Shown: piece after piece, positions 638 to 29,400 of the stretch | How the letters are laid out: every line of letters starts with the position of its first letter | Numbering within the stretch: position 1 is the first letter of the stretch | Origin: a virus | DNA length: 64,000 bases | Virus record (IMG/VR): IMGVR_UViG_3300042868_009121 | Span: 52,145 to 116,144 of that record | Direction: 5' to 3' (one strand) | Position numbers and translations under genes: made by a program | The notes under the pieces: model-generated | Told to the model about the DNA's origin: nothing | The model's database searches: none | The model's input: the letters and a program-made list of their open reading frames with translations, nothing else

Positions 638-1285
638 ATGCCAGATTTACCAATATCAGGATTACCAGCAGCAAATTTACCTTTAGATGGAACAGAATTA
701 TTTGCGACAGTTCAAGGAGGAATAACTAAATACTCAACATTAAATTCAGTAAACTATATTCCTGGTAATAGCTATGGATTATATGCTCAAATAGTAAATA
801 GCACTCCTGTAACTGCTACAACATCAGAATTATCTTTAATAAATAGTACTGATGGTATAGGTACATTAACTGTTCCTGCTAATGGTTTTAGAGTCGGAGA
901 TAGTTTTAGAGCGGATTTTGGTGGTCAGTTTTCTTCTAAGAATAATGATACTATAAGAATTAGAGTTAAAACAGGAAATGTAATCTTAGCAGATAGTGGA
1001 GTACAAACTATGTCAGCAGCAGTTGATGACATTTGGCAACTCTCTATTAATTTTACAATTAGAGAACTTGGAGCAGCAGGAGTAGCAGATATTGTTTCAC
1101 TTGGTGTATTTCATACTACAAAACAATCTAACGGTGCTCCGCAAGGATTTGCTTTTAATACTATTAATAATACAACATTTAGTACTACAGTAACAAATGT
1201 TTTAGATGTTACAGCTCAGTTTAGTTCAAATAGTCCTTTAAATTCAATATTTACAGACATATTCGTATTGAATAAAATCTATTAA
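638..1285 (+). CDS. Putative virion structural/accessory protein
   Basis: N-terminus MPDLPISGLPAA resembles fibre/decoration anchor peptides; beta-rich; convergent with thyA. Confidence 0.55.
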   Translation: MPDLPISGLPAANLPLDGTELFATVQGGITKYSTLNSVNYIPGNSYGLYAQIVNSTPVTATTSELSLINSTDGIGTLTVPANGFRVGDSFRADFGGQFSSKNNDTIRIRVKTGNVILADSGVQTMSAAVDDIWQLSINFTIRELGAAGVADIVSLGVFHTTKQSNGAPQGFAFNTINNTTFSTTVTNVLDVTAQFSSNSPLNSIFTDIFVLNKIY

Positions 1286-2358
1286 TTACTTAAGGGAGCT
1301 TTTATTTTTGAATGCGATTGATAATTTATTAACTCAAAACAATCTGGTCTGTAACTTAGTATTTTTTCGCTAAATGTTTTTTCTCCAAGATGTTCTTTAA
1401 CTGCTTCATGCATATACCAATTCCTTTCAGTTATTTGAACTTTAGGTAATTCATATGGAGTTCTAGTAATTTGTTCTTTAGCTTGTTCAATATGGTTATT
1501 ATACAAATGAACGTCACCTAAATTACCAATTAAATCTTCAGGCACCATGTTTACTTCTTTAGCAATAATCTCAAGTAGTAGTGCATATGAAGCAATATTG
1601 AATGGTAGACCAAGGAATGTATCTACTGAACGTTGATTCCACATTAGAGAGATTGCTCTTCTTGGAATGTTTCGTTGTTCTAAACGATTTATAGCTACAT
1701 TATGTAAACCATCTGGCGGCCAGTCGTATTTGGCAATGCTATACCTTTCTTTTAAACTCAACTTTCTCGTATAAACTTGAAAACCATAATGACAAGGCGG
1801 AAGTACCATTTGATTTAATTCACCTACATTCCAAGCACTAACCATTAATCTTCTACTATCTGGATTTATTTTGAGTTCTGAGATTAGGTTTGCGATTTGG
1901 TCTACGTGTTCAGTACCTTTATAGAATACGCTTCTACTATTCCAGTTTCTCCATTGCTTACCATAGATTGGTCCTAACTCCCCCCACTGTTTAGCAAACT
2001 CATCATCTGTTTTTATTTTTTCTACAAATGCTTCTTCCTTTGTAACAAACGGACCCCAATCAATTTCGCCGTTATATTTTTCATAGTTCTTAATTGCATC
2101 ACCATTCCAAATATGACAACCATTATCAACAAGGTATTTGATATTAGTATCACCTCTTAGGAACCATAGTAACTCTGTTACCATAGTTTTCCACGCCATC
2201 TTTTTTGTAGTTAGCAATGGAAAGCCTTCTTTCATATTGTGCCTAATTTGCCAACCAAAGATTGATTTAGTGCCTGTACCTGTACGGTCTTTCTTATCTA
2301 TACCAAAATGTAAGATATGTTCTAATATTTCTTTATACTGACGGTCTATATTATTCAT
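1282..2358 (-). CDS. thyA: Thymidylate synthase
   Basis: DRTGTGT, ELLWF, LPPCH, QRSVDTFLGLPFN (Asn177-equivalent, dUMP specific), HLYNNH. Confidence 0.97.
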   Translation of the reverse strand: MNNIDRQYKEILEHILHFGIDKKDRTGTGTKSIFGWQIRHNMKEGFPLLTTKKMAWKTMVTELLWFLRGDTNIKYLVDNGCHIWNGDAIKNYEKYNGEIDWGPFVTKEEAFVEKIKTDDEFAKQWGELGPIYGKQWRNWNSRSVFYKGTEHVDQIANLISELKINPDSRRLMVSAWNVGELNQMVLPPCHYGFQVYTRKLSLKERYSIAKYDWPPDGLHNVAINRLEQRNIPRRAISLMWNQRSVDTFLGLPFNIASYALLLEIIAKEVNMVPEDLIGNLGDVHLYNNHIEQAKEQITRTPYELPKVQITERNWYMHEAVKEHLGEKTFSEKILSYRPDCFELINYQSHSKIKAPLSN

Positions 2359-3994: not shown

Positions 3995-4642
3995 TTAGTT
4001 GAACATGTCGTAATGCCTAGGATAAACGTGTAGATTTGTAATAAACCAATGCATTTGACCTACTGGATAGCCTGTCTTTTCTGAAACTAATTCCATTAGT
4101 TTAGCAAATGTGTATTGGTCGTTACAGAAACCAAACACAAGATCAATGGATCTAGCAAAGACTGTAAGATGTAGTTTATCGTTTTTGATATAGAAATTAA
4201 GTACGTCATTACAAGGTGTATCATATTTGTATCTATCTATTTCGTGTAGAATATAATGTACAACAATTGCTCGACGTGTTTCTTTATTTCTTTTTAGTTC
4301 GCTAATAACTTTGTTAAGTTGTTCATTATAATTCCAGAAGTATCCGTAATTAGAGTTTACCTCTGTAGTATATGGTATCATCATTTGGTTCCATATCTTA
4401 GCACGTTCTGCAATTTGTTTAGCATCTCTATCTCCTTTAACATACCATTCCCATTCATATTCTGCATAATCTTGGTTAAACTTACGTCTAGGAGTTGTAA
4501 TTACTTTATCTGCTGGATTATCGACTGTAAAAGAAACATTGAACTTAGCTTTAGTATTAGCAAAGTCTTCACCTGTATCTATGATATAATGAAATAAGTT
4601 TTCAAATGCACTAGTAGGGGTCGAATAAATTTTATTGTCCAT
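3995..4642 (-). CDS. Thymidylate synthase homolog, dCMP-specific (dCMP hydroxymethylase/T4 gp42-like)
   Basis: EWEWY, VNSNYG, catalytic PC, RSIDLVFGFCND with Asp at the E. coli Asn177 position (cf. T4 gp42 RSNDVVFGFRND), NLHVY. Confidence 0.85.
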   Translation of the reverse strand: MDNKIYSTPTSAFENLFHYIIDTGEDFANTKAKFNVSFTVDNPADKVITTPRRKFNQDYAEYEWEWYVKGDRDAKQIAERAKIWNQMMIPYTTEVNSNYGYFWNYNEQLNKVISELKRNKETRRAIVVHYILHEIDRYKYDTPCNDVLNFYIKNDKLHLTVFARSIDLVFGFCNDQYTFAKLMELVSEKTGYPVGQMHWFITNLHVYPRHYDMFN

Positions 4643-5099
4643 ATTGTTCTACTTGTATAAATTGTGATAAAAAGTCTATGCCTTGAGTATTTCGATATAC
4701 ATTCAAATATACAACTTTTTTTATTCCTGATTGCAAAATAAGTTTAGAGCAGTCTAAACAAGGACTAAGTGTTAAGTACAAAGTGGAACCATCTACAGAG
4801 TTGCCTGTTTTTGCTGCTTTAAGAATGGCATTAACTTCTGCATGGATAACATGGGGCAGAGTGACATCATCTTTCTCACAAGTGTTGTCCATACCTGCAG
4901 GAGTGCCATTATATCCAAATGATATTATATTGCCATCTTTAACTAAAACTGCGCCGACTTTTGATCGAACGCAGTGTGACAGAGTAGAAGTTTCCTTAGC
5001 TATGTTAATAAATACTCTGTTTAGTATTTTTTGCTTAAAGTCCTGTAGAACCGAATCCACCTGAGCCTCTTTGTGTATTTCTGTTTGGTAATTCATCAA
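4632..5099 (-). CDS. dCMP deaminase (start uncertain)
   Basis: GYNGTP, HAE, LSPCLDC zinc motifs. Confidence 0.92.
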   Translation of the reverse strand: MMNYQTEIHKEAQVDSVLQDFKQKILNRVFINIAKETSTLSHCVRSKVGAVLVKDGNIISFGYNGTPAGMDNTCEKDDVTLPHVIHAEVNAILKAAKTGNSVDGSTLYLTLSPCLDCSKLILQSGIKKVVYLNVYRNTQGIDFLSQFIQVEQYGQ

Positions 5100-5487
5100 C
5101 TTCTAATATATCTAGGTAACCAACTGGAATTAAAACGAACTGAACTAATTTTTGTCCTGTAACAATAGTTTGATCTTTATCAGATGTATTAATCATGTGG
5201 AGATGAACTTCTCCTTCATAGTCTTCATCTACTACGCAAGCACCTACTGATAGTCCTTGCTTAACAGCTACACCTGATTTATTAAATGCTACTAGAGCAT
5301 AGCCTCTAGGAACTTGTACTCTAACACCTGATGGGATCAATACTGATTCACCTGGCTTTAGTATTGTAGTTTCAAAATCCTCAGGTACATAAAAATCAAT
5401 TCCTGCTGATGCTTCTGTGCCCCTATTTGGGGTCTTTACGTTTCGTAACTTTTGTATCTTCATTTTGAACATTGTTTTGATAATCAT
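5035..5487 (-). CDS. dut: Trimeric dUTPase (true start probably 5472 or 5463)
   Basis: AGID, NKSG, VDEDYEGE, RGSGGFGSTG motifs. Confidence 0.95.
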   Translation of the reverse strand: MIIKTMFKMKIQKLRNVKTPNRGTEASAGIDFYVPEDFETTILKPGESVLIPSGVRVQVPRGYALVAFNKSGVAVKQGLSVGACVVDEDYEGEVHLHMINTSDKDQTIVTGQKLVQFVLIPVGYLDILEVDELPNRNTQRGSGGFGSTGL

Positions 5488-5728
5488 TTAGTGAAGCAAT
5501 ATACGCAACACAATCTAATAAATTGTCTTCTTTATGGTTGTAAGCTTGTCTTGATAACTTTAATGCAATCATTGCGTTATACATATCAACTGCAGTTAGT
5601 TCTTTACGACTTAATAACGATGCAATTTTAGCTGCTTCTTGCATACCTTCTTGCATTGGCCCATATTGACGGGCTTTCTCTTCAGATCTCTTGTAGATAA
5701 TCTCGTTTGCTTGTTCTAGTATATTCAT
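5423..5728 (-). CDS. DUF6378-like all-alpha nucleotide-modification-associated protein
   Basis: ILEQA..I..R..QYG, LKLSR, HKEDNLLD..AY pattern. Confidence 0.7.
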   Translation of the reverse strand: MNILEQANEIIYKRSEEKARQYGPMQEGMQEAAKIASLLSRKELTAVDMYNAMIALKLSRQAYNHKEDNLLDCVAYIASLNDYQNNVQNEDTKVTKRKDPK

Positions 5729-5764
5729 GGAATAAATATAAAACAGAATTAATAAATGGTAAAA

Positions 5765-6652
5765 CTATTCTCCTAAGTACTTAATAATATCAGACTTATC
5801 ACCCCACTCTCTTTGAGAGTCTACATCACTTGGTTTAATTGTAGGCTTAGGCATATTTCTAGCAACATTCCAGAACCAATTTCCAGAGTGACCATAACGT
5901 TTCATATAATCCCAACCTTTTGCATCATAGGTTTTGATACAATCAAATGGAGTATCGATGTCACAATCTTTAAGGAACTCTTTATGATACGCATAAAATT
6001 TAGCTCTACCTAATTCACCTGGTTGCACATTTCTTGCAACTGCTACTGCATTAAATTTAGTATCTGGAAGTGCAATCTGAAGCGTTCTAGATAATACGCC
6101 TGTTGAGAATACACTCCACAATTCATCTATATTTTTATCTTTAAATGCTTCATGAAATATCTTAACTCCGCCTGCTACAACTTGTTCATGTTTAAGACCG
6201 AATGGTAAATATTTTGCACCGATCTTTTTTGCAAAATCTTTTGCCCAACCATTAATAGTAGGCATAGCAGGAGTTTTCAAGAATATAGGAGTCGCTCCAT
6301 CTTCAATAACACGTAGTTGATGCTCAGATGCTTCTTTAGATGCTGGCATAAATAGTATCAACTTTTTATTATACTTTTTAGCAAGATATGTTAATGAGTA
6401 TGGAGCGTACCCTGTTCTAGGTGCAACATAAACTAAAGCATCTTCTTTTACTTGACTAATCATAAAGTCTCCCATCTTTGCCTTACTACCATATTGAAAC
6501 TCACCATCATCGATTATATTAAAACCTTCTGCTTGTTTTAATTTAAATTCAAAATCTGGTTTGTAGTTTTTCGTCATTTCAAGATAGTAGTTTAAATCTC
6601 TACCATCTGACATGTCTAAGTTAGATTGATCTGTTGCTTTGTTTATGAACAT
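5765..6652 (-). CDS. PLP-dependent enzyme, fold type II (TrpB/cysteine synthase/ACC deaminase superfamily)
   Basis: GSK (candidate Schiff-base Lys), YVAPRTGYAPYSL..LAKKY, STGVLSR phosphate loop, TYDAK, WNVA. Confidence 0.75.
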   Translation of the reverse strand: MFINKATDQSNLDMSDGRDLNYYLEMTKNYKPDFEFKLKQAEGFNIIDDGEFQYGSKAKMGDFMISQVKEDALVYVAPRTGYAPYSLTYLAKKYNKKLILFMPASKEASEHQLRVIEDGATPIFLKTPAMPTINGWAKDFAKKIGAKYLPFGLKHEQVVAGGVKIFHEAFKDKNIDELWSVFSTGVLSRTLQIALPDTKFNAVAVARNVQPGELGRAKFYAYHKEFLKDCDIDTPFDCIKTYDAKGWDYMKRYGHSGNWFWNVARNMPKPTIKPSDVDSQREWGDKSDIIKYLGE

Positions 6653-6654
6653 TT

Positions 6655-7341
6655 TTATTTCTTTTCTTGAAGTTCTTTACTTAAATTACTAACCGGAACT
6701 GGTGTTCCTACAGGATATGGGAATCCTTCTTTAGCTGCAGTAATAGACGTCATTCCTGTTTTAACCGGAATAGCTTTACGTAGTGGAACTGCTGCTTCAT
6801 TAAGTGGACCGTATACTTTTGCCAATACAATACCTGTAGATGTTGTATCAAAGATAATTCCTGGCATAGCAAACATATTACTTTCACTTGTACTTGGATT
6901 ATCAAGGTTTATAACAAATGCACGATTTACTGGAGGTAGTAATTCCCACTCTTTAGTTTCAGGATTAAACTGAGGTACTACCGTTGTTGAATCAAAATAC
7001 CAGAATAGAGACCATGCTGTACCATTAGTTCCATCAGGAGTTTGAAAGTTTTCAGCTACATTGAATTTTCCATAAGTTCCACTAATGCCTTCCATTGCTA
7101 AATTAGAAATAGATGGTCCGTCTAATACAGGGCATATTGCACATCCTTCATCATATTCAACTCCTTGAACGATAATCTTTTTTCCAGTAGGAATTGCTCC
7201 AGATGCACCGCAAAAAGCAAAAGATCCTTCGTGTACCTTTACTATTTTATCAAATTTAAGATCTTCAACTATCTCAGTGTTTGTCTTACAACTAACTAAC
7301 ATTACTAGTAGACTAACTACCATGAGTGCGCTTTTTTTCAT
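6655..7341 (-). CDS. Lipoprotein of unknown function
   Basis: Lipobox LVSC after a signal peptide; additional Cys in FAFCG and CAICP. Confidence 0.7.
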   Translation of the reverse strand: MKKSALMVVSLLVMLVSCKTNTEIVEDLKFDKIVKVHEGSFAFCGASGAIPTGKKIIVQGVEYDEGCAICPVLDGPSISNLAMEGISGTYGKFNVAENFQTPDGTNGTAWSLFWYFDSTTVVPQFNPETKEWELLPPVNRAFVINLDNPSTSESNMFAMPGIIFDTTSTGIVLAKVYGPLNEAAVPLRKAIPVKTGMTSITAAKEGFPYPVGTPVPVSNLSKELQEKK

Positions 7342-7352
7342 TTTTTTGTTTT

Positions 7353-8396
7353 TTATTTTAATTTAATTGCGAAGTCATAATACTTGTCATGACCCCATGT
7401 TTGTTTAAGAATTGAATTATTTTTCATTCTATGACCATTATTTTTTATAATATGATCTTCAGACTGATATTCTTGGAAATAACGAACCACGTCGCATGCT
7501 CTACTATCTTCACAATCAATTGGATTCAAGTTATACCTATTAGACAAGAATTGTAGTACTTCATTAATATACTCGAACTCTTTTACTTTAGGACTAACTT
7601 TAGGAAAAATAGCTTTAATACAACGAACTGCGTTTGTTCCTGCATATACCCAACCTTTAGGATTTACCATATTAGGAAAATATTCACCTAAGTCAGCAGC
7701 AAATGCAGTCAATACAAAGTTTTGTTTTTTAAATCCAACACTATTAAGATATTCATTACCAATATCTGTTACTTGATAGATATCTAATCTTTTAGTAGTA
7801 ACAGCTTCATAAATATGTCTAACTAAACCTTCTGAGTGTTCAAGAATAAAACGTCTTAAGTGTCCTCTAGTCTCGCCTTCAAAAGTGAATTGTGGAAGTA
7901 AGTATCCTTTATTATCTGTAAAAGGCGTGATGCGGTTTCTAAGGTCTTCTTTCCATTCTGGCCATGTATATCTTTCTTTTAATATAGAATCTACAATCCA
8001 GAAATTACCGAAACCATGCGTACCCAGGATGTCCTTGATATGATCTGTTTTATATCTAGGTACGTAATTAATACCAGAACCACTTAGTCTAAATAAATAG
8101 AATAGCATAAACCAATCAAACTCATCTTTTATATCATGATGTGTAAAGTGATTACCCATTCCTCTTAAGTCTTTTTCTTTATACCATACGGCTTCAGTAA
8201 AAGCGCAGAATGCTGCAAATCTACGATGCGCAGTATCATAAATAGGCACATGATAAATTAAATCGTCATTAACATCTGCAAGTAAGTCTCCATCATAAGG
8301 AAGCTTAAGACTACCATGTTGTTGCATTAATAAACTACGTTTATCGTATTCATCTAATGCTTCAAGGAGTTTTTCGTTTATAATAAATTTAGTCAT
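7353..8396 (-). CDS. aGPT-PPlase1 / amino-acid:DNA transferase (ADDT)-like HhH-fold DNA-modifying enzyme
   Basis: YDTAHRR, FVLTAFAADL, VYAGTNAVRCI (GPGAxRGL-equivalent), DCEDSRACDVVRY (E..LCE..KY-equivalent); context next to TS homolog and PLP enzyme. Confidence 0.7.
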   Translation of the reverse strand: MTKFIINEKLLEALDEYDKRSLLMQQHGSLKLPYDGDLLADVNDDLIYHVPIYDTAHRRFAAFCAFTEAVWYKEKDLRGMGNHFTHHDIKDEFDWFMLFYLFRLSGSGINYVPRYKTDHIKDILGTHGFGNFWIVDSILKERYTWPEWKEDLRNRITPFTDNKGYLLPQFTFEGETRGHLRRFILEHSEGLVRHIYEAVTTKRLDIYQVTDIGNEYLNSVGFKKQNFVLTAFAADLGEYFPNMVNPKGWVYAGTNAVRCIKAIFPKVSPKVKEFEYINEVLQFLSNRYNLNPIDCEDSRACDVVRYFQEYQSEDHIIKNNGHRMKNNSILKQTWGHDKYYDFAIKLK

Positions 8397-8422
8397 ATAT
8401 AAATGTATAAAAATTATGTTTA

Positions 8423-9103
8423 TTAATCAAATCTATCTTTGCAGTGATCAAAATGCCATCGCTGCATAGCATTGTATTGACCTATTTTTTTACAATATGG
8501 ACACTCCACTTTTTTCCTATCTTTAGCTGATTCTGACATTTTAATTTTAGCTTCTTCTGATTTAGGTTTGCGCATCTTACTTATAGTATTTTTAGAGTGT
8601 TTTTTACCAAATCTCCAGTTTTTTTCTCCTATTCTAGAATTTGATATATTCAATCTATGAGATTCAGAAAAAATCTTACCAGTATTAGGTCCTGGTTTGC
8701 CTATTTTAGCTTTTGACAGTTTCTTTTTATGATCTTCAGATAAAATTTTGCCTTTATGAGAGATAGATATTTTTAATTTAGTTTCATAACTTACAACTTT
8801 TTCTCTCATTTTATTTTTACAATACTCATATACTCTAGAACTTGGTTTATATCTATTTCCTTTCTCTGTAGGTATTATAGACATCATAGAAAAAGCATAA
8901 AATAGACTAGGATTATCAGGATATATTTCATGTAGTAACCAATGACATAAAAAATGTTCTCTTGCAGTAAGCTCTACTATATTATCTTTATCATTACAAC
9001 CTCCAATACATTTAGGTATTATATGATGCTTTTCTTTATATCCTTCTACAATTCTATTTTTAGCTCTGTATATAATTTGATCATATATTTTTTTATAATT
9101 CAT
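8423..9103 (-). mobile_element. Free-standing HNH homing endonuclease with NUMOD3-like repeats and C-terminal Zn finger
   Basis: EKHHIIPKC..GG..N..LTAREHFLCHWLL; SEDHKKKLS/HSKNT repeats; CPYC..RWHFDHC. Confidence 0.9.
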
Positions 9104-9212
9104 AAAAAAGAAAATGGTCCAAAAAACAGAGGAGCTACTACCTTCCTAAGTTTAAAGGACCAATAAGTTTATTATAGAATGTTGGTAGTAGCAACTTTCT
9201 GTCTATAATAAA
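9104..9212 (-). ncRNA. Candidate structured leader: two hairpins with complementary (kissing) loops
   Basis: Stems 9202-9212/9168-9178 and 9157-9162/9115-9120; loops CUACUAC (9185-9191) and GUAGUAG (9135-9141) are perfect complements. Confidence 0.6.
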
Positions 9213-9214
9213 TA

Positions 9215-9445
9215 TCATAGTTTTTCTATTTCTTGTTTTACTTCTTCTAAATAATCCCAAACCTTTTTATCATAAAAACCTGCAAGTACTAATAGTTCGC
9301 CTATTGCTATTAATGCACATTGTTTAGCTTGTTTCCATGCTTTATATTCTTCAGATATACCTAAAGGCTCATTTATCCAAGCCTCATTAGGTGTTGTTTG
9401 GTAAAACTTATCTACTAATTCTTCTGCTTTTTCTTTTGGTGTCAT
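9215..9445 (-). CDS. Mini-ORF family A (MTPKEKA...EVKQEIEKL)
   Basis: Paralog of 10249-10503. Confidence 0.75.
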   Translation of the reverse strand: MTPKEKAEELVDKFYQTTPNEAWINEPLGISEEYKAWKQAKQCALIAIGELLVLAGFYDKKVWDYLEEVKQEIEKL

Positions 9446-9738
9446 TTATTATAAGTTTCATTGTAGTATTTAAAAAATGTTTGCCAATCTTCTTCAGCAA
9501 TACCTTTTCCTTCAAATCTACCAGCTTGGTGAGCAGCTATCCAGCAATCTTCCATCTGCTCCATCTCCATTAATTTGGCTTGTTCAAATATCTTTTGCCA
9601 CTCGAGAATATGTGGTTCACTTTTCAATAAAGTTTCAAAAAACCATTCTACTGCTGTTTGTTGTTTTGTTATTTGTGTAAATGTACCATACACAGGATAG
9701 CCATTTTCGTCTAGTGGATTGTCTGTTTGTCGTGCCAT
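9442..9738 (-). CDS. Mini-ORF family B (KQQTAV.W...YYNETY)
   Basis: Paralog of 9711-9977. Confidence 0.7.
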   Translation of the reverse strand: MARQTDNPLDENGYPVYGTFTQITKQQTAVEWFFETLLKSEPHILEWQKIFEQAKLMEMEQMEDCWIAAHQAGRFEGKGIAEEDWQTFFKYYNETYNK

Positions 9739-9977
9739 ATTTTATCTTTAAATGTTTTATTATAATAATCTTCAAACGAATCACCATGACCTGTGTCTAA
9801 CAATGCTAACATAGCGTGTTCATAACATGCTTTCATTTGCTCCCTCCCCATTGCTTTGGCTTTTTCAAATAAATACTCAAACAAAAACTGATTAGCCTCA
9901 TACGCATTACCTATTTCTTTAGGAAACTTATTTTGTAATTCTATTAAAATCCAATTAACTGCTGTTTGTTGTTTCAT
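9711..9977 (-). CDS. Mini-ORF family B (MKQQTAV.W...YYNKTF)
   Basis: Paralog of 9442-9738. Confidence 0.7.
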   Translation of the reverse strand: MKQQTAVNWILIELQNKFPKEIGNAYEANQFLFEYLFEKAKAMGREQMKACYEHAMLALLDTGHGDSFEDYYNKTFKDKIWHDKQTIH

Positions 9978-10252
9978 ATATCATATGATTTAGGTGAAGG
10001 TAAGCCACTATAATGACAATCCAAACCATTAATCAACATCTCTGCAATATTCTTATGTTTACGATCTATTTGATCATTTAGATTATCTATTCTAGTACTT
10101 AAATTATCCATGCTATTACTTAAATTATCTACTCTAGCATTTAAATAACCATGTAGAAATCCGTTAATCCAAAATCCTTTATCATTCTTATCACAACCAT
10201 GACATCCTTCCCACTGGGTTTCAGCTAGTTGTTCTATTTCTTTTCGTGTCAT
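9974..10252 (-). CDS. Hypothetical protein (CHGC motif)
   Basis: Likely start MTRKE at 10252 via ATGA overlap; ORF track extends it to 10285. Confidence 0.6.
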   Translation of the reverse strand: MTRKEIEQLAETQWEGCHGCDKNDKGFWINGFLHGYLNARVDNLSNSMDNLSTRIDNLNDQIDRKHKNIAEMLINGLDCHYSGLPSPKSYDI

Positions 10253-10503
10253 AGTTTTTCTATTTCTTGTTTTACCTCTTCCCAATAAGATTTAGCCATT
10301 CTCCAATCACCACTATCAGACATTATCCCCATAGATAGTATTTCATCTACTGCAACTAATGCATATATCTTAGCATGAATAACGGAATTAATTATTTGAA
10401 TTGGAACTACTGTCTGTTCACCACTACTGTCTTCTATACGCTCAGTATGATATACAGTAAGAAACTTACTTACGAGTTGCTCTGCTTTTTCTTTTGGTGT
10501 CAT
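10249..10503 (-). CDS. Mini-ORF family A (MTPKEKA...EVKQEIEKL)
   Basis: Paralog of 9215-9445; 25- and 27-bp identical terminal DNA blocks. Confidence 0.75.
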   Translation of the reverse strand: MTPKEKAEQLVSKFLTVYHTERIEDSSGEQTVVPIQIINSVIHAKIYALVAVDEILSMGIMSDSGDWRMAKSYWEEVKQEIEKL

Positions 10504-11429
10504 TTTACAAATTCGTTTGCGAACATATAATATTTAGGCTTCAAGTGTACTGATTGTTTAGGTTCCATGTATTCAAACATCTTCATTCCATCTTCATCAA
10601 TCCATTCATTTGGCCATTGAAGTGTTTTAAGTCCTGAATTATTCATGATCCTATTTGCTGTATCTACCAATCTTGCTCTTTCTTGTCTTGTGCCAAAATA
10701 AGCTTGTTTTAGATATAAACCTGTACCAGGTAATTTACGACTTTCATGCTCAACTGGTAACAAATTAACTAGAGTTGCATTATTTAGTTTCTTAGCAAAT
10801 TCTACATAACGTCTAATAAGATCTCCTACTGCTTCAGCAGGATTATCTTGCCTCATTAAGTGAAAACGAATATCAATATTACCAAAGTAAAGAACTACTT
10901 CGTCATATTTTTGATTCCACTCTTCAATTAAAGAGTCGGCATCTTTTAAGAATCCAAACAAAGTTTTACCGTCTGTTCTATCAAGACCAAAACCAGGTCT
11001 CCATGCACTAAGCGAATGAGAATCACCTCTTACTAACTTCTTTGTATTATTTGCATGTAGTCTAGCAAAGTCAATACAGTTGATTGCAGTAAACTGATGA
11101 TCAATATTAAATCTTTTATTGAACACATTAAGATCAATAGGAACATTAACTGCAATAGCTAAACCTTTATAATTAGCCATAGCTTCAAGCTTAGCTCTAT
11201 GTTCAGGTTGTGGTCCTCCAATAAAATTGAATACGTTCTCTTGATAGTTAACTCCTTCTAGAATGTAGAGTCTTTCATATTCATTCCATGTTGAAGGATC
11301 TGGATTAACATCTAAATCTCCTGGGTGTTCTGATTTTAGTATGTTCAACATAACATGATAATAGCCGCCGCCGTGATGGCTTTGGCTACTACCAACATTA
11401 TTGAGCATACCTACTACGGCTGCTTTCAT
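10500..11429 (-). CDS. SGNH/GDSL-like hydrolase or acyltransferase
   Basis: GDSH (block I), YFGNID (block III-like), SVH (block V-like). Confidence 0.55.
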   Translation of the reverse strand: MKAAVVGMLNNVGSSQSHHGGGYYHVMLNILKSEHPGDLDVNPDPSTWNEYERLYILEGVNYQENVFNFIGGPQPEHRAKLEAMANYKGLAIAVNVPIDLNVFNKRFNIDHQFTAINCIDFARLHANNTKKLVRGDSHSLSAWRPGFGLDRTDGKTLFGFLKDADSLIEEWNQKYDEVVLYFGNIDIRFHLMRQDNPAEAVGDLIRRYVEFAKKLNNATLVNLLPVEHESRKLPGTGLYLKQAYFGTRQERARLVDTANRIMNNSGLKTLQWPNEWIDEDGMKMFEYMEPKQSVHLKPKYYMFANEFVK

Positions 11430-11449: not shown

Positions 11450-13081
11450 TTACATTCCCATAGTCATGTCCATCATAGGATCTGACTTGTCATTTTTTTC
11501 TTTCTTTTCAAATACAACAGATTCAGTTGTCAAAATAGTTCCTGCTACTGATGTTGCATTCTTAAGTGCTGTAATAACAACTTTAGCTGGATCAATGATG
11601 CCTGATTCAAACGCATCTACCATTTTATGATTCTTTGCATCATAAATTTTATTTTTTACTAATTCGCTTGGAATATAATTCCACCAGTCTTCTACACCAG
11701 CATTAGATAAAATCTTAATAAATGGTGCTTGTAAAGCATTGCGAACAATATCTCTAGCGATTGCTACATTGCTATTGCTTTCTGCTCTATGATTAAGTGC
11801 TACTCTATAAAGTGTTGCACCACCACCAGGTACGATACCGTCAGCAAGAGCTGCTTTAGTTGCAAATAATGCATCTTCTACACGATCTTTCTTTTCTCTA
11901 ATCTCAATATCACTATTACCACCTACAGAAATAATTGCAACACCACCAATCAACTTACCAAGTCTTTCTTGCAACTTCTCTTTCTCGTAGAACGATGTAG
12001 CTTTTTCAATTTGCTCTTTTATTTCTTCTGCTCTAACTTCAATCGCTCTCTCATTACCTTTACCATCAATAATAGTAGTCTCTTCTTTAGATACAGTTAC
12101 AAGTCTTGTTGTACCAAGATATTGAGCGAGTTGCTGTGTAGATAATTTATCAAGCTTCAAACCTTTATCTTTAGAAATAACTTGTCCACCTGTCAAGATA
12201 GCAATATCTTCTAAGATTAATGTTTTACGCTCACCAAAGTCTGGTGCTTTAACTGCGCAAACTTGTACAATACCACGCATTTTATTTACAATTAATGTAG
12301 CAAGAGCTTCATCACCAATATCTTCAGCGATAATTAATAAAGGTCTATTCTCTGAATTTGCTTTAGTCAATACTTGTAACAACTCTTGTGCAGTTGAAAT
12401 ACGTCCATCATATAAAAGAATATATGGATTATCAAGCACAGATTGCATTGTTACATTGTTAGTTACAAAGTAAGGTGATTTGTAACCACGATCAAATTGC
12501 ATACCTTCAACAATCTCTAATGTAGTTTCACCAGTTTTAGATTCTTCAATAGTTACTACACCTTCACGACCTACTTTATCAAGTGCTTCAGCAATTAAGT
12601 TACCAACTTCAGGATCATTATTACCTGAGATAGTTGCAACTTGTTTAATTTGCTCTTCTGAAGAAATTTCTGTTGCTAATTCTTTAATTTCTTTTACTAC
12701 TTCATTAACGATATTGTCAATCTCATTCTTAATCTCAACAGCGTTAACGCCTTGACGAATTTCTTTAAGACCTTGTTTAATCATTTCAGTAGCAAGAAGT
12801 GTAGATGTTGTTGTACCATCACCTGCTTCATTTGCAGATTTAATACTAACTTGCTTAACAAGTTGTGCACCAAGATCTTCAATATCATCTTCAAGTTTAT
12901 GAAATGCTTTAGCTACTGTTACACCATCTTTTGTAACTTTAACTTCACCATTTTGTTCACGAATTAATACTGTGCGACCACCAGGACCTAATGTTGATGA
13001 TACTGATTGATTTAACTTTTCTATACCGGAAAGTAACTTTTCTTTAAGCTCTGTTCCAAAAACGTTTTTTGTTGTACTCAT
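11450..13081 (-). CDS. groL: Chaperonin GroEL
   Basis: [34 protein letters not shown], Met/Gly tail. Confidence 0.98.
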
Positions 13082-13094
13082 AGTCTTTTTTAAT

Positions 13095-13385
13095 TTATTC
13101 GATAACTCCTAAAATATCTGATTCTTTACAGATGAAATAGTCTTGTCCTTCAAATACGATTCTTTGTGAACCAAGTTTAGGGATTAATACTACTTCTCCT
13201 TCTTCAAGAGTCGAGATAACTAGTTTATCTGTGTTGTAATTATAAACATTAGATGTAGCTACTACTTTTCCCATTTCAGGTCTTTCTTTACCAAGATCTG
13301 GAATAATAATGTTACCGAATGTTTCTTCTTCTGTTTCGATTGGCTTTAATACTATATAGCCATTTAGTGGGGTTATTTTATTCAT
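13095..13385 (-). CDS. groS: Co-chaperonin GroES
   Basis: PLNGYIV, GNIIIPD, ESDILG; adjacent to groEL. Confidence 0.93.
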   Translation of the reverse strand: MNKITPLNGYIVLKPIETEEETFGNIIIPDLGKERPEMGKVVATSNVYNYNTDKLVISTLEEGEVVLIPKLGSQRIVFEGQDYFICKESDILGVIE

Positions 13386-13389
13386 ATTG

Positions 13390-13584
13390 CTAATTTAATA
13401 TTTCTAATTCATCTACTTTAATACAAAAATAGAGTAAGGCATCTTTTTTAAAGACTGCATCTACTCCAAACCATATTTTAAAATCATCAAGGTTTTTACC
13501 TTGTACAAACTCTTCTTTTAGAGTTCTTTTGATTTCAAACAAGTCTCCATTAATGTTAATGAAATTTCTGTGTAATTGAAACAT
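13390..13584 (-). CDS. Hypothetical protein in chaperone operon
   Basis: 64-aa ORF between sHSP and GroES. Confidence 0.65.
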   Translation of the reverse strand: MFQLHRNFININGDLFEIKRTLKEEFVQGKNLDDFKIWFGVDAVFKKDALLYFCIKVDELEILN

Positions 13585-13591
13585 AACTGGT

Positions 13592-14119
13592 TGTAGGTAG
13601 GCCTTTTATTTATAACTTATTTTAATTGTTTTTTTGGAGTTGAGATCTCAATCTTCCTTATTGCTTTACCTTCAGCAGTTGGAATGTCTAGAGTAAGAAG
13701 ACCTTTATCTAACTGCGCTTCTAGTTTAGAAAGATCAAACTTAGTACTAATTTTCCAAGTTAAATCAAAGCTAGAACGCTTGATACCTTTATAAATGACT
13801 GCCTCTTCAATTTCTGTTTGAGGCTTTTCATACTTAATACGAAGTTGATCATTATCGATTTGAATATCGATATCTTTTGAATCAAGACCTACAGCGGCTA
13901 CTTCAAATTTAATGCCACTAGGTGTTTCGTAAATGTCTACTGGATGTGTTACTTTCTGCGTAATTGCAGAGAATCGTGAATTGTTTTCGAATAAGTCTCG
14001 CCATAATAAATCAAATGGGTCGAGCTCAAATGGTCTAAATGTTCCCATATTTTTTGTTTTGTGTTCCCTTACGGTGAACGGTTAATAATTGTTTATTTTA
14101 TAACCTTGGCCTACCTACA
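13592..14119. repeat. 12-bp perfect inverted repeat bracketing the sHSP gene
   Basis: TGTAGGTAGGCC at 13592-13603 and GGCCTACCTACA at 14108-14119. Confidence 0.85.
13617..14048 (-). CDS. Small heat-shock protein (Hsp20/alpha-crystallin)
   Basis: PVDIYE, GIKRSSF, AQLDKGLLTL, terminal IEI motif. Confidence 0.93.
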   Translation of the reverse strand: MGTFRPFELDPFDLLWRDLFENNSRFSAITQKVTHPVDIYETPSGIKFEVAAVGLDSKDIDIQIDNDQLRIKYEKPQTEIEEAVIYKGIKRSSFDLTWKISTKFDLSKLEAQLDKGLLTLDIPTAEGKAIRKIEISTPKKQLK

Positions 14120-21015: not shown

Positions 21016-22026
21016 TTATTTATATTTTTGTAGATCGTGAAAATGATTAAATAACCATGATTGAACATTAGGTATCGAATTCCCTAATTGATCTTCATGA
21101 TACAAATTTAAGAATTCCTGTGAATCATATATCTTTTTTGGATCTAGTAAAACACTATTTATTTCTTCTATTGCTTCTTCAGGAATATTAGGATCTTTTA
21201 AGTCCATCAACTTTTTATTTATTCTAAGTTGAAATTCATAGTTCTTAATAGATTCTAGTATTTTATGCTTACCTTCACATTTTTGTAATACATCATCTAG
21301 AGTGATTTGTTTATCTGATCCTAGTTCAGGAAAATGTTTTAACATTGTCTTAGATCCCAAACCTTTTACCCCAGGAACATTATCTCCTGAGTCACCTAAT
21401 AGTATTTTTTGTGTTAAAAAGTTTTTAGGTGTTACTCCAAATTCTGTTAAAACAAGATCTTCATCATAGAATCTTTTTTTTGTAGGAGAATAGATTGTTA
21501 TTTTATCTGATACTAACTGTAGATAGTCTTTATCACTAGACATAATAGTTACTTCACCATCTAATTTACCTGTTATATATCCTATTACATCATCTGCTTC
21601 AATTTTATCGATAGATATAAGATCAACAGGAAGTGTTTTTAAATAGTATATTAGTCTAACAATCTGATGTGTGATAGCTTCTGATTCGTCTTGTTGTGAA
21701 TCAAATGAATCCCAATTAGTAACTCTATTAAGACCTCTATTTGCTTTATATTCTGGGTAGATATATCTTTTATTAGTAGATGATCCTTGTCCATCAAACA
21801 CGACAATCACTCTAGTCGGTCTAACCAATTTAATTACATACCCTAAAGAACGTAAAAAACCGGTTAAACCTCCTATATGAGATAGATCTTTATTAACCCA
21901 ACCAATTGCAGTAAATGCTCTTAGAAAAGTATTTAATCCATCAATAAGTAGAACTCTACTATTGAGTGATGCTTCGGCTTTCTCTGATTTAAGAGAGTCG
22001 AATATTTTTTGATATTCTTTATTCAT
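21016..22026 (-). CDS. 5'-3' exonuclease / flap endonuclease (RNase H-like)
   Basis: LIDG, FDG, YKANR, EADD, SSDKD, GDSGDNVPGV. Confidence 0.93.
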   Translation of the reverse strand: MNKEYQKIFDSLKSEKAEASLNSRVLLIDGLNTFLRAFTAIGWVNKDLSHIGGLTGFLRSLGYVIKLVRPTRVIVVFDGQGSSTNKRYIYPEYKANRGLNRVTNWDSFDSQQDESEAITHQIVRLIYYLKTLPVDLISIDKIEADDVIGYITGKLDGEVTIMSSDKDYLQLVSDKITIYSPTKKRFYDEDLVLTEFGVTPKNFLTQKILLGDSGDNVPGVKGLGSKTMLKHFPELGSDKQITLDDVLQKCEGKHKILESIKNYEFQLRINKKLMDLKDPNIPEEAIEEINSVLLDPKKIYDSQEFLNLYHEDQLGNSIPNVQSWLFNHFHDLQKYK

Positions 22027-26456: not shown

Positions 26457-29400
26457 TTAAACTATCTGAACTCCTACTAGTTTAGCAATTTTTATACCGC
26501 CGTCTCTTATTAATTCAAAAGAATTTTGATCTGTATTAGGATATATAATTCTAGTATTTAATCTTAAATTAATAAATAATTTAAGTAATTCATCAGTATT
26601 TCTTTGTCCTTGATTAAAAGCATTTGTTATTTGGTTTGAAAATCTTTCAAAGTATCCAGAACCATTCCATGATGCATAAATAAAATTAAAATACAACCTT
26701 CCGTCAGTTTTTATTAAATCTTGTAACTCTTTATTTGGTACGTATGAATTAAATAAACCCTCAAAATGAGGTTTCATAACTTGTACAGCTGCATTTAAAA
26801 TTTGTGTTTTTAAAGGATCTTGAGGAATAAAATTATGTTTCCAAGTACGTGCTGCATTAGCATCATCTATTAATTTCCAAAAAGCTATTCCAGCAGGAGT
26901 TGTATTTATTCTTCCGCCTGCTACTCTATCTATACCAAACATAGTTTCTCCTGATTTTCCCATTCTAGATCTGTATTTTTCGTCAAGCCTTCCATCTGTA
27001 AACATTATTGGATTATAATAACCCCCTTCTAAATTTGCAATTACTTGTTTTGTAACTTCTTCAAATGAATTTACGGTTTTAGTTACAGGACCTACCGTTA
27101 TAACACCAGCCGTTAATCCAGAATCTATAAAAGTACCTCCTATAGTTCCACTACCTATAGAGATATTAGAAGCATTAATTCCAAATTGACCTGATTTTGC
27201 TTCTATTTTTTGAACACTTCCACTAAATTCTCCTTTATTTTTTAAAAATATCATATTAGCTCTAATAGAAGTATCCCATTGATTATTTTCTATTTTATGA
27301 GTTAATCCAACTGCAACAAATCCTACATTACGTACTCTATCTTTAGAAAAACCCTCTGTCTTTCTTGTTGTATATGTATAAGGCAATAATTTATCAGGTA
27401 TACTAAACGCTTGACCCATATTAAAACCAGATATTCCATCTGTAGTAAGATTAACAGAAACAGGAATCATAAATGATGCTCTTGTTGCATAGTCATCATT
27501 TTTTAAAGTAGTCATTTTTTCTATATAATAGTTAGTTGCATGAGCTACAGTAGTTTGTGATGGATTAATTTTACTATAAAAATCAGATATTGTACTATTA
27601 AATTGAGCCGCAGAATTTTTTATTGCTTCATTATTTTTTTTGTCTAGATTACTACCTGTAGGCTCTAATTTATCTGTTATGTATCTATCAATAAAATTAG
27701 TATTTATAAAACCGAATGAGTCTCCATTAGTAGATAGCGTAGCTTTATTAGGTATTGTAGAATTTGCAGATATTGCAAGCATATTAGATAGCTTACTACT
27801 AATTTCTGATTTTATTTCTATAGATTTTGCTATAGAATATTTTCCTAATAAAGGAAGTTCTGTTGTATTATCTTTATTTTCTGGAAGTGCGGTTAATTGA
27901 TCTTCATTTCCAAGAGTTGGTAGTATTTGATCATCAATTATTTGATATGTATTTGCTTGATCATTGTAAGAAAGTCTAAATGCATTAAAATTACCTAAAG
28001 ATTTATTTACATCTGTAAGTACTTGTTCTAAAAATGTTTTTAAATAAACTGCATTACTTCCATCTTTATGACTATATTGTTGAACTAATTGAACTAAATA
28101 ATCTATATTCAATAATATATTCATTAATTTTCCTCTATAAACATTTCCAATTTCTTTAGTTGATTCTCCTGATATTGGTTGTTCATCAAATTTAAGTTTA
28201 GGCAATTTTCCACTTAAAAGGTCTTGAGTTTCAGGATTAAATAAAGTAACAGGCTCTTTTAAGTTTATAGATGCTCCATTATCAGAAAGTATATCTCTAT
28301 CAAATAAAGCTTTGAAATCTTGAAAACTACCCTCAAAAGGAATTAAACAAGTCCATGGATCAGTACTTAAATGTTTATTATTAGTAAGACAAAAATTTAA
28401 TTCAGGATTAAAATCTATATAAATTAAAGGTGTTTGAAATTGAGAATCTTTTTTTGTATCATATATAGTACATGCATGATTTAAAATCATTAGTAATTGT
28501 CCTAATGTTATATATACTGGATGGTTGGCAACTGTTCCTTTTATTATCTCTTGATTAATTTGATAAGGAACTACATATGCTTTTAATAGTTCTTTAAAAT
28601 TAACAGGTTCTAAATCGCTTAAAAACGCTTTATTACCCATTAAACTAGTAGCAAATCCATACTTAGCATTTATTTTAAATCTAGTTATAGGATCCATTAC
28701 TCCTACTTGTGTATATTCAGAATCTTTTATCTCTTCACTATTTACTAACTCATTAATAAAAGTAGAAAATATACCAGAAGAAAATATTTGGTTTAAAAAA
28801 GGTTTTTTTGATTTAGTATTATTAACATCTATCACACTAACTTTATCTTTAGGATCCCATAAATCTAATACATGAGTAGTCTTACCTATATCTAAATCAG
28901 GTGCACCAGTTTTATTTATGGCTTTATTTAAAGCATGAACTTGAATAGTTCTTAATATTATTTCTAATGAAGATTGATAGTTAAGAGATTGCTTTATTTG
29001 TGTAGCTATAGCATTTATATCAGGTTTAGGAATTTGAGATTGGGCACCAGGACTTGGTGTTGGTGTTTGTGTTGGTGTTTGTACTTGATTTTGTAAATTT
29101 AATTTTTTTAAATATTCTTCTCTTTCAACTAAGTTATTTTGTTCAGTTGTAGATATATCTTTTATTATTGCTGTATCATTTGTTGAAATTTTAAATGTAC
29201 CTTTTACAACTTTAGCAATTTTATTTGTTTGTGGTGTTGAAGCAGGGACATCTCCACCTGATAATGCACTTTCAACTTCATTTTGGTTATCTTTAACTTC
29301 TGTTCTGTAGCCGGTAATTTCATATTCACCTCTAAAATCTACTCTAAGTCCGTCATTTTGTCCTTCATAAACAGATATTTTTAATTCTTTACTTAATGCA

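Follow-up and report, generated by a model that had tools for sequence, protein, structure and literature searches.

The window is a 64 kb stretch of DNA from a lake-water virus, and its ORF list and translations placed all the cassette genes on the minus strand. The first of these, TS215 (3995..4642), is a 215-aa thymidylate-synthase homolog (PF00303, E = 4.7e-27). Its gene is overlapped by that of a dCMP deaminase (4632..5099; PF00383, E = 3e-26; phrog_174), which is followed by a dUTPase-family pyrophosphatase (5035..5487; PF00692, E = 6.8e-25), a DUF6378 protein (5423..5728; PF19905, E = 2.3e-12), and the 295-aa fold-type-II PLP enzyme PLP295 (5765..6652; phrog_7093 'threonine dehydratase', E = 3.6e-27). 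A 228-aa ORF with a lipoprotein signal (6655..7341; N-terminus MKKSALMVVSLLVMLVSC) lies between PLP295 and p347 (7353..8396; 347 aa), whose AF2 model and structure matches show an amino-acid:DNA-transferase / HhH-GPD-like fold. Next come an HNH/NUMOD3 homing endonuclease (8423..9103; phrog_655, E = 3e-55; NUMOD3), five small ORFs of 76-103 aa (9215..10503, from the ORF list and translations), and the 309-aa p309 (10500..11429), in which the AF2 model and structure matches showed an N-domain (1-125) and an SGNH-fold domain (128-305). The earlier note had described the DUF6378, PLP, ADDT-like and GDSH genes as co-oriented, and both the orientation and the coordinates hold. The canonical ThyA of 358 aa (1282..2358, minus strand), with PPCH, QRSVDTFLGLPFNIASY and Asn at the 177 site, is a context gene for dTMP supply.

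Two insertions in the window's copy of the cassette are outside the system. The first is the lipoprotein gene (6655-7341), which was found in 11 of 25 close relatives and in 0 of 20 distant ones and showed no family match in Pfam or PHROG. The second consists of the HNH homing endonuclease and the five small ORFs (8423-10503). Two loci (L002 and L041) with p347 98% identical to that of the window had no HNH endonuclease, and p309 and p347 abut there. The region of the five small ORFs was absent from close relatives, whose p309 stops 2 nt before p347; these ORFs arrived with the HNH insertion and are not core.

Linkage and mobility of the cassette

The core, formed by DUF6378, p309, p347, PLP295, dUTPase or MazG, and the TS homolog, was unbroken in 80 related viral contigs. 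Co-occurrence counts in cassette loci were 45/45, 63/63, and 38/38 (the last for loci with both flanks present), so the grouping is far beyond chance. In other cassette versions a MazG-domain protein (PF03819 in G004) held the dUTPase slot, and one or the other was present in all 45 loci with that flank. DUF6378 was found in 38/38 loci with both flanks at 52-85% identity and is an obligate accessory of the cassette, for which PDB and Pfam searches gave no link to a known activity. The dCMP deaminase is accessory, with 25/25 close relatives and 6/20 distant cassettes carrying it.

Two phages of 162 kb and 70.5 kb, unrelated in other respects, had essentially the cassette alone in common. Between the genomes G001 and G004 the cassette was the only set of shared genes, and in G004 its reading frames overlap or abut. 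The cassette thus moves horizontally as a block between unrelated phages. The synteny survey proposed earlier therefore showed gene co-occurrence without exception, together with joint transfer.

Predicted activities of the cassette proteins

The motif RSIDLVFGFCND, noted earlier as belonging to a second TS homolog with Asp at the Asn177-equivalent position, maps to the 215-aa ORF at 3995-4642, whereas ThyA (1282-2358) has Asn there. The closest solved relative of TS215 was the T4 gp42 dCMP hydroxymethylase (1b49, E = 6.5e-18), and RSIDLVFGFCND aligned to gp42 RSNDVVFGFRND, which places the TS215 Asp opposite gp42 Asp179. Asp143, Cys146, Asp169, and Asp177 (E. coli ThyA numbering) were invariant in 56/56 family members. 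These residues are the full published 5hmdCMP synthase signature, methylases carrying Leu143 and 5-hydroxy-dCMP synthases Asn169 (PMC13326640). By these criteria a methylase was ruled out by Asp143 and a 5-hydroxy-dCMP synthase by Asp169. An independent tie between Asp177 and modified-cytosine contigs has been described (PMC8670742). From the sequence we strongly infer that TS215 is a dCMP hydroxymethylase (5hmdCMP synthase).

PLP295 family members carry PF00291, and the window's own PLP295 had no Pfam match. Its Lys57 was invariant and aligned to the PLP lysine of CysK. Comparison with M6 gp52 gave an hhalign probability of 92.9% (E = 3.8e-7), and both proteins have the C-terminal motif PF..YDxKxW..FWNV. 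M6 gp52 decarboxylates a DNA-attached amino acid (PMC8989533). Judged by this homology, PLP295 is a specific relative of a validated DNA amino-acid decarboxylase, and its earlier assignment to fold II was confirmed.

The AF2 model of p347 had a pLDDT of 93.1. Its BFVD match was an 'Amino acid:DNA transferase' protein (E = 3.3e-12, TM 0.75). In the PDB, VIA placed DUF2419 first (Z 9.0), followed by PaMx11 gp46 (8z2m, Z 8.1) and then HhH-GPD glycosylases, although Z values of 8-9 are only moderate for such an all-helical model. Pfam and PHROG gave no match, hhalign found nothing against M6 gp51, and none of the deposited phage genomes carries p347. The ADDT likeness is thus purely structural: the earlier label of aGPT-PPlase/ADDT-like stood for the ADDT/HhH-glycosylase-like fold, the invariant Cys and the nearby Glu, but p347 is not an ADDT member at the sequence level. 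Across cluster representatives, Cys301 was conserved in 84/84 and Glu296 in 81/84. The two match the 'conserved cysteine and neighbouring glutamate' that are essential in M6 gp51 and ViI gp247. As a new family, p347 is predicted to be a base-flipping transferase with Cys301 and Glu296 as catalytic residues.

For p309 the AF2 model (pLDDT 91.3) showed an alpha/beta N-domain (1-125) and an intact SGNH enzyme domain in the C-terminal half, and SGNH folds made up all top 50 structure matches of residues 128-305 (Z up to 11.7). Ser137 (GDSH), Gly154, Gly159, Asn184 (GNID), and His295 (QSVH) were invariant, and the usual block-V Asp is replaced by Gln. The SGNH assignment made earlier therefore held for both the fold and the catalytic Ser, Gly, Asn, and His. 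An in-frame fusion of p309 to p347 was observed in one locus (L079) and in the representatives of 8 independent protein clusters (50% identity), and p309 is an obligate partner of p347. Domains like p309 were also present in T4-like Aeromonas phages that have neither PLP295 nor p347. We know of no SGNH enzyme acting on DNA.

Proposed pathway and competing readings

On balance we lean towards a self-contained mobile module for 5hmC-based DNA hypermodification with an amino-acid-derived group, in which the SGNH partner stands in the kinase's place; its product and activation chemistry we infer. Before replication, TS215 would convert dCMP to 5hm-dCMP, as the sequence strongly suggests. The dUTPase-family enzyme (or MazG), with an assumed dCTPase activity, and the dCMP deaminase would act on the dNTP pool the way their T4 counterparts do, and ThyA would keep up dTMP. 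Cellular or unlinked phage kinases would raise 5hm-dCMP to the triphosphate for incorporation by the phage polymerase; we found no dNMP kinase for 5hm-dCMP. The fold, the conserved residues, and the gene fusions suggest that p309 and p347, as a pair, would then act on 5hmC in DNA. p347 would flip the base, and Cys301, aided by Glu296, would attack C6 and expel the leaving group on the C5-substituent. This would let an amino acid attach at the exocyclic methylene, in the manner of ADDT enzymes acting on thymine precursors. The p309 SGNH domain would occupy the position of the 5-hmdU DNA kinase of thymine systems. Its suggested role, O-acylation of the hydroxymethyl group to create the leaving group, is the weakest step, a tentative and rather doubtful one, and we know of no DNA modification that uses O-acyl activation. 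In the third step, by homology to the validated enzyme, PLP295 would, by way of Lys57, enter a Schiff-base linkage to the attached amino acid's free alpha-amine and decarboxylate this amino acid, so that cytosine bears a cationic aminoalkyl-type side chain.

The same pathway and product class with phosphorylation by an unlinked P-loop kinase, and with the SGNH protein as a later tailoring enzyme that acylates or deacylates the appended group or trims an ester-linked donor, appears unlikely. The earlier note had recognised no kinase or T4-type glucosyltransferase in the cluster. This stood for the cassette, which showed no HMUDK-type kinase domain, gp1-type kinase, or T4-type glucosyltransferase. 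As regards kinases, the genomes differ: small P-loop kinases lie away from the cassette at 29275-30060 in G001 (Zeta_toxin-like) and at 21056-21526 in G004 (APS-kinase-like). The ViI kinases are likewise unlinked to the transferase (PMC8989533, Table 1), and an acetyltransferase performs a late tailoring step in PaMx11 (PMC8989533). However, no homology links the G001 kinase to the G004 kinase, neither is common to both genomes, as the cassette alone is, and they have no HMUDK helical domain. G001-G004 showed neither HMUDK_hel (5-hmdU-DNA-kinase helical) nor ADDT Pfam domains, and Walker-A motifs in the 64 kb window were confined to the helicase and recombinase. The recurrent fusion of p309 at the p347 N-terminus mirrors the 5-HMUDK architecture of kinase plus helical domain, so a step that comes early and is coupled with base flipping fits better than a late one.

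Tailoring could instead precede replication, with p309, p347, and PLP295 converting free 5hm-dCMP before its phosphorylation and polymerisation, which we regard as quite improbable. DUF2419, the best PDB match and of the same fold, is a queuosine-nucleotide hydrolase acting on the free nucleotide, so DNA is a putative substrate of p347. All cassette genes lie amid nucleotide-metabolism genes, and a 5hmC carbamoyltransferase also takes 5hmdCTP (PMC8670742). Against this, the characterised ADDT and gp52-type enzymes all act on DNA (PMC8989533, PMC11472151), the HhH-GPD relatives that fill the p347 match list are DNA base-flippers, and a bulky charged dNTP would demand an adapted kinase and polymerase.

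It is very improbable that a role in DNA is limited to TS215 and the pool enzymes, giving plain 5hmC or no replacement, while p309, p347, PLP295, and DUF6378 serve elsewhere, for example in small-molecule or anti-defence metabolism. Function was assigned by remote homology, and p309-like domains are found apart from PLP295 and p347 in the Aeromonas phages. The perfect five-gene linkage across >35 diverged loci, the block transfer between unrelated phages, the specific homology of PLP295 to a DNA-acting decarboxylase, and the DNA-glycosylase-like fold of p347 with its ADDT-like Cys and Glu argue against it. Thymine as the final target, reached when the adjacent deaminase turns 5hm-dCMP into 5hm-dUMP for ordinary thymidine hypermodification by an unusual feed, is scarcely credible: overlap of the deaminase with TS215 is seen in the window and in 25/25 close relatives, and ADDT plus PLP systems have so far all used 5hmU derivatives (PMC8989533), but 14/20 distant cassettes lack the deaminase and keep all else, the Asn177 hydroxymethylase, HMUDK, and canonical ADDT are all absent, and the window's phage retains a normal ThyA.

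The cytosine hypermodification reading is thus supported as a candidate pathway, probably at the level of DNA rather than nucleotide. Every computational check that bore on its refutation was run, and each outcome favoured it. Counting against it, cassette DNA reads readily in many Illumina metagenomes. If the reading is true, cytosine would be decorated by relatives of enzymes known only from thymine hypermodification, together with a new esterase-type partner, and the side chain would protect phage DNA from host nucleases.

Comparison with known systems

Thymidine hypermodification in ViI and M6 combines 5-HMUDK, aGPT-Pplase2/ADDT, and a PLP decarboxylase (PMC8989533). The cassette shares with it a precursor made by a TS-family hydroxymethylase, a helical DNA-glycosylase-like transferase with conserved Cys and Glu, and a gp52-type fold-II PLP decarboxylase. 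As in ViI, the radical-SAM isomerase is absent, which implies side-chain-linked attachment with the alpha-amine left free. Unlike ViI and M6, the cassette hydroxymethylase has Asp177, which points to dCMP rather than dUMP as substrate and cytosine as the base. The cassette has no 5-hmdU DNA kinase, and its transferase belongs to neither the ADDT nor the HMUDK_hel family of Pfam. An SGNH-fold enzyme, for which ViI and M6 have no equivalent, is the transferase's obligatory partner and is frequently fused to it, and DUF6378 is constant.

The T4 dCMP hydroxymethylase system comprises gp42, the gp56 dCTPase, cd, td, gp1, and glucosyltransferases. The Asp143/Asp169/Asp177 TS homolog, NTP pyrophosphatase, dCMP deaminase, ThyA, and pre-replicative logic are similar, whereas the cassette lacks a glucosyltransferase and gp1-type kinase and its tailoring is predicted to be amino-acid-based instead of glycosylation. 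PaMx11 gp46 (PUGT, PDB 8z2m), the 5-PmdU glycinyltransferase, resembles p347 in fold (VIA Z 8.1, 207 residues aligned) and in a catalytic Cys ~45 residues from the C-terminus (Cys247/291 vs p347 Cys301/347). Sequence similarity is undetectable, p347 is 56 residues longer, and the leaving group and base of the substrate may differ.

The MetaGPA 5hmC carbamoyltransferase cassettes also come from uncultured phage contigs, where a 5hmC-tailoring enzyme accompanies an Asp177 TS homolog, a MazG/PRA-PH pyrophosphatase, and dCMP deaminase, but that enzyme is a TobZ-type carbamoyltransferase, which is not found here (PMC8670742). With the SGNH O-acyl esterases/transferases TesA, PatB/OatA, and sialate O-acetylesterase, p309 shares the fold and the Ser (GDS), Gly, Asn (GxN), and His residues. 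It differs from them in the block-V Gln for Asp and the extra 125-residue N-domain, in its phage origin and cytoplasmic location, and in its fusion to a DNA-glycosylase-like domain.

Gene Order, Linkage and Mobility of the Cassette

The window DNA has a GC content of about 32%, and nearly every gene lies on the minus strand. It carries replication genes for PolA, a DnaB-type helicase, a UvsX-like recombinase, SSB, and ribonucleotide reductase. The genes discussed here are all on the minus strand. In transcription order, p309, a 309-aa SGNH protein (10500-11429), comes first and is followed by five small ORFs and an HNH/NUMOD3 homing endonuclease (10503-8423), which split it from p347, a 347-aa protein with an ADDT-like fold (7353-8396). 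An ORF with a lipoprotein signal (6655-7341), the 295-aa PLP enzyme PLP295 (5765-6652), a DUF6378 gene (5423-5728), a dUTPase (5035-5487), and a dCMP deaminase (4632-5099) come next, and the 215-aa thymidylate synthase homolog TS215 (3995-4642) closes the stretch. A canonical ThyA (1282-2358) lies further on. At 358 aa this ThyA is of unusual length; the bacterial ThyA chains among the PDB matches have about 264-280 aa. Read by eye, the additional segments lie mid-protein. The stretch 11450-14048, immediately upstream of the cassette, encodes GroEL (543 aa), GroES (96 aa), and a small heat-shock protein of the Hsp20 type, which are kept in close relatives.

Linkage was surveyed in 80 IMG/VR loci, which were found with the p347 profile and compared with the window proteins. 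PLP295 and TS215 were both present in all 45 loci with at least 4.5 kb downstream, and a dUTPase or a MazG-domain protein held the same cassette slot in 45/45 of these. p309 was found in 63/63 loci with an upstream flank, and the 38 loci with both flanks all carried p309, PLP295, TS215, dUTPase/MazG, and DUF6378. The linkage holds to 50% identity of p347 and to 30-40% identity of the partner proteins. The earlier note had proposed a synteny survey for co-occurrence, and the genes were always found together. The dCMP deaminase was present in only 6 of the 20 distant cassettes.

The trimeric dUTPase-family gene of the window (5035-5487) and a MazG-domain gene (L084:10948-11550, in the 70.5 kb record G004) replace each other in the cassette. 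This interchange at one slot suggests that the dUTPase homolog may be the dCTP/dUTP pyrophosphatase of the pathway. DUF6378 was tested as a MazG-like all-alpha pyrophosphatase, and this assignment was unsupported; in the literature the family is only listed, once beside ThyX.

The cassette of G004 (completeness rating 98%) runs DUF6378, p309, p347, PLP295, MazG, and TS215, with frames that abut or overlap. The 162 kb record G001 is 95% complete and has about 80% nucleotide identity to the window. Only the five cassette genes and two weak matches are common to G001 and G004, and the cassette is therefore transferred as one block from phage to unrelated phage. Among the tail/fibre genes of the window, the segment 54007-59861 holds two large glycosyltransferase fusions (GT4+GT9-like, and GT4+FkbM methyltransferase+GT2); their homologs are absent from G004, where the cassette is present. 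The cassette is a compact five-to-six-gene unit, common in lake metagenomes. At least half of the sampled words of the stretch were found in each of 19 lake-water or freshwater metagenome runs, one per study, and 3 of these 19 are possible sources of the window DNA.

The copy in the window carries insertions. p347 and p309, split here by the segment at 8423-10503, abut in the 98%-identical relatives L002 and L041, and the HNH gene at this junction is variable between loci, with different HNH genes in L004, L005, L027, and L038. The outermost small ORFs (9215-9445 and 10249-10503) are alike at the N-terminus (MTPKEKAE.LV.KF) and the C-terminus (EEVKQEIEKL), which would fit a repeat within the insertion or a duplication of its target. 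The 228-aa ORF at 6655-7341 matches no family and carries the signal peptide of a lipoprotein (…LVMLVSC). Since 11/25 close loci and 0/20 distant cassettes have it, it resembles a moron that entered the operon.

The Thymidylate Synthase Homolog and Its Predicted Product

TS215 matched PF00303 with 95.2 bits (cut-off 24.3). Its best solved relative and top PDB match is the T4 gp42 dCMP hydroxymethylase (1b49, E 6.5e-18). In the alignment, RSIDLVFGFCND of TS215 lies opposite RSNDVVFGFRND of gp42, and its DTPCN lies opposite the catalytic-Cys segment. Positions 143, 146, 169, and 177 (E. coli ThyA numbering) are Asp, Cys, Asp, and Asp in TS215 and its 55 non-identical relatives (56/56 at each position); Asp143 stands three residues ahead of the Cys and Asp169 lies in RSID. 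The motif quoted in the earlier note does belong to TS215, with Asp177 in RSIDLVFGFCND, and the window ThyA has Asn177. The closest deposited phage homologs of TS215 are in Bacteroides fragilis phages, with 44% identity.

According to a 2026 study (PMC13326640), Asp177 marks dCMP as the substrate, Asp or Glu at 143 leads through water access to a hydroxymethyl and not a methyl product, and Asn169 is the mark of flavin-dependent 5-hydroxy-dCMP synthases. The invariant Asp143, Cys146, Asp169, and Asp177 point to TS215 as a predicted 5hm-dCMP synthase of the T4 type (dCMP hydroxymethylase). A dCMP methylase is disfavoured because position 143 is Asp, and a 5-hydroxy-dCMP synthase because Asp169 is kept.

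The Transferase-like, PLP and SGNH Proteins

The p347 sequence gave no match in Pfam (up to E 10), PHROGs, or the PDB profile search, and none by tblastn against 50,697 deposited phage genomes. Two profiles compared with M6 gp51 by hhalign also gave nothing. The family is large in metagenomes, with 363 matches in the first search and 118 clusters at 50% identity; among 59 diverse relatives, a single one touched PF18724 (ADDT), with an E-value of 1e-3, below the cut-off.

The AF2 model of p347 had a pLDDT of 93.1 and a pTM of 0.91. Against BFVD, two uncharacterised viral proteins came first, followed by an ‘Amino acid:DNA transferase domain’ protein (E 3.3e-12, TM 0.75/0.68), with weaker matches to Pplase1 and 5-hmdU DNA kinase helical domains. 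In an exhaustive structural comparison with the PDB, the queuine-salvage enzyme DUF2419 was on top (Z 9.0), and the second match was the PaMx11 gp46 5-PmdU glycinyltransferase (8z2m; Z 8.1, rmsd 4.7, 207 residues). HhH-GPD DNA glycosylases came next, and 15 of the 17 top matches belong to the HhH-GPD superfamily. These Z values are moderate for a helical protein, yet the match list of the model is coherent. The expectation of an ADDT/HhH-glycosylase-like fold with two helical bundles is upheld by the predicted structure, on the BFVD and 8z2m matches.

The functional hallmark of ADDTs is a conserved Cys with a Glu close by. M6 gp51 and ViI gp247 need both residues, and the Cys, which is Cys247 in gp46, attacks the pyrimidine at C6. 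In p347, Cys301 was found in 84/84 cluster representatives and Glu296 in 81/84, and Asp297, Asp302, Arg305, Asp235, Phe227, and Gly106-Ser107 were nearly invariant. The motif is E-D-x-x-x-C-D, and by sequence position its Cys is about 45 residues short of the C-terminus, a distance also seen in gp46 and gp51. The description of p347 as ADDT-like stands for the fold and fails for membership of the Pfam ADDT family by sequence. Since p347 lies outside that family, it is treated here as a new family that would work like ADDT, and not as one of its members.

The window copy of PLP295 gave no match in a Pfam search up to E 10, for which it is too diverged, and it matched phrog_7093 ‘threonine dehydratase’ with an E-value of 3.6e-27. 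A profile of 23 relatives recovered more than 1000 proteins, most of them with the fold-type-II PLP family PF00291, including most family members at about 40% identity. Lys57 is invariant (23/23) in the motif G-(T/S)-K and aligned with the Schiff-base lysine (SVK) of cysteine synthase. The comparison with phage M6 gp52 by hhalign gave a probability of 92.9% (E 3.8e-7, 189 columns), and the alignment takes in the distinctive C-terminal motif PF..YDxKxW..FWNV. M6 gp52 and ViI gp226 were shown to decarboxylate amino acids already on a DNA base (PMC8989533). From the PALP fold, the Schiff-base lysine, and the specific homology to gp52, we infer that PLP295 is a putative decarboxylase of the gp52/gp226 type.

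Two other phages also have domains like that of PLP295 (27-28% identity, E 1e-14 to 1e-26). Erythrobacter phage vB_EliS_R6L gp1 (L082, 811 aa) has the domain within a large protein annotated ‘DNA modification methylase’, and in Microcystis phage Mae-JY30 (L083:5968-6678) it adjoins two ParB/sulfiredoxin genes. They are a further link of the PLP295 subfamily to DNA-modifying machinery.

In the p309 model (pLDDT 91.3), an alpha/beta domain (1-125) precedes the SGNH domain (128-305). Residues 128-305 matched 50 SGNH esterase and acyltransferase structures with Z values of 11.7 to 7.7 and have the three-layer alpha/beta/alpha fold. Ser137 (GDSH), Gly154, Gly159, Asn184 (GNID), and His295 (QSVH) were kept in 25/25 diverged homologs. 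The usual block V Asp of the DxxH triad is missing, and an invariant Gln292 is found there; Ser-His dyads occur in the SGNH superfamily. The enzyme looks active, because the Ser, Gly, Asn, and His block residues are invariant. The N-terminal domain (1-125) gave no match in the PDB profile search or the ESM Atlas, and a T4 beta-glucosyltransferase-like assignment was dropped at a Foldseek TM of about 0.26.

L079 encodes an in-frame p309::p347 fusion of 713 aa, and further fusions (560-790 aa) represent eight separate clusters at 50% identity; p309 is N-terminal in every case. The likeness to 5-HMUDK is one of architecture only, with a helical DNA-glycosylase-like domain placed after a catalytic domain. 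Complex prediction of p309 with p347 scored 0.00, which counts neither for nor against.

A p309-like domain with GDSH, GNID, and SVH intact was also found in ORF233c of Aeromonas phage 44RR2.8t (L098:5902-8289) and in 42 other phage records; the carriers are T4-like Aeromonas phages and some Tenacibaculum and Stenotrophomonas phages. In ORF233c it forms the N-terminal half of a 795-aa protein, whose 430-aa C-terminal half has CEIACC near its end, and the gene adjoins a phage-encoded Na+/solute symporter. The C-terminal half was considered as a hidden p347 relative, and the p347 profile gave no match to it. Proteins of this type may be a second, cultured system built on the same SGNH module.

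A Possible Kinase-Free Route and Known Hypermodifications

The earlier note had recognised no 5-hm-pyrimidine DNA kinase in the cluster, and our searches agree. PF18723 (HMUDK_hel) and PF18724 (ADDT) are absent from the four related records G001-G004, two of which are nearly complete (G001, 95%; G004, 98%), and PF18723 is also absent from the window's cluster. The helicase and the recombinase are the only window proteins with Walker-A motifs; p309 has none, and its fold is SGNH instead of that of a P-loop kinase. Small stand-alone P-loop kinases were observed in G001 (Zeta_toxin-like; 29275-30060, L090:9275-10060), about 100 kb from the cassette, and in G004 (APS-kinase-like; 21056-21526, L085:1056-1526), about 10 kb from it. 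The two have no homology to each other, lie outside the shared gene set, and show no linkage to the cassette. As possible dNMP kinases they are candidates for the missing 5hm-dCMP kinase, and they are also candidates for a DNA kinase.

A kinase-free route is possible, though of fairly low probability. In it, the SGNH enzyme, fused or paired with the ADDT-like base-flipping transferase, O-acylates 5hmC in DNA, or the pair substitutes the hydroxyl directly, after which an amino acid is installed and decarboxylated. The product would be a new cationic cytosine derivative of abundant freshwater phages. The mechanism that we favour overall, as somewhat more likely than not, runs in five steps, of which the first has a strong basis: TS215 would make 5hm-dCMP, with T4-like shaping of the pool. 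The nucleotide is assumed to be phosphorylated and then incorporated. By analogy with ADDT, p309 and p347 would act on 5hmC in DNA; Cys301 would add to C6, the leaving group on the C5-substituent would depart, and the amino acid would join the exocyclic methylene. Activation through O-acylation by the p309 SGNH domain, in place of phosphorylation, is a hypothesis that we regard as unlikely. C5-cytosine methyltransferases can swap the 5hmC hydroxyl for thiols without prior activation, so direct substitution of this hydroxyl is also conceivable. In the last step of the favoured mechanism, PLP295 would decarboxylate the appended amino acid through Lys57, as its homology to gp52 suggests. No radical-SAM isomerase is present in the system, which argues for a ViI-like side-chain linkage with the alpha-amine left free.

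To our knowledge, the amino-acid-derived DNA hypermodifications known so far are all on thymine and all begin with a dedicated DNA kinase, and those known on cytosine are sugars or a carbamoyl group. Neither an ADDT or PLP pathway on cytosine nor a part for SGNH enzymes in DNA hypermodification was described in the literature searched, whose coverage is incomplete. The cassette would bring amino-acid chemistry to cytosine and add SGNH as a new class among the enzymes that act on the bases of DNA. With its 118 protein clusters at 50% identity, it would also define a new family of transferases. Such a base, if real, would bear on restriction and CRISPR evasion, on sequencing and modification-calling bias in viromes, and on enzymatic tools for 5hmC labelling.

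The cassette has a T4-type front end in common with the MetaGPA carbamoyl-5hmC contigs (PMC8670742). Its back end is like that of thymidine hypermodification, from which it differs in the cytosine base, the lack of 5-HMUDK, the new transferase family, and the obligate SGNH partner.
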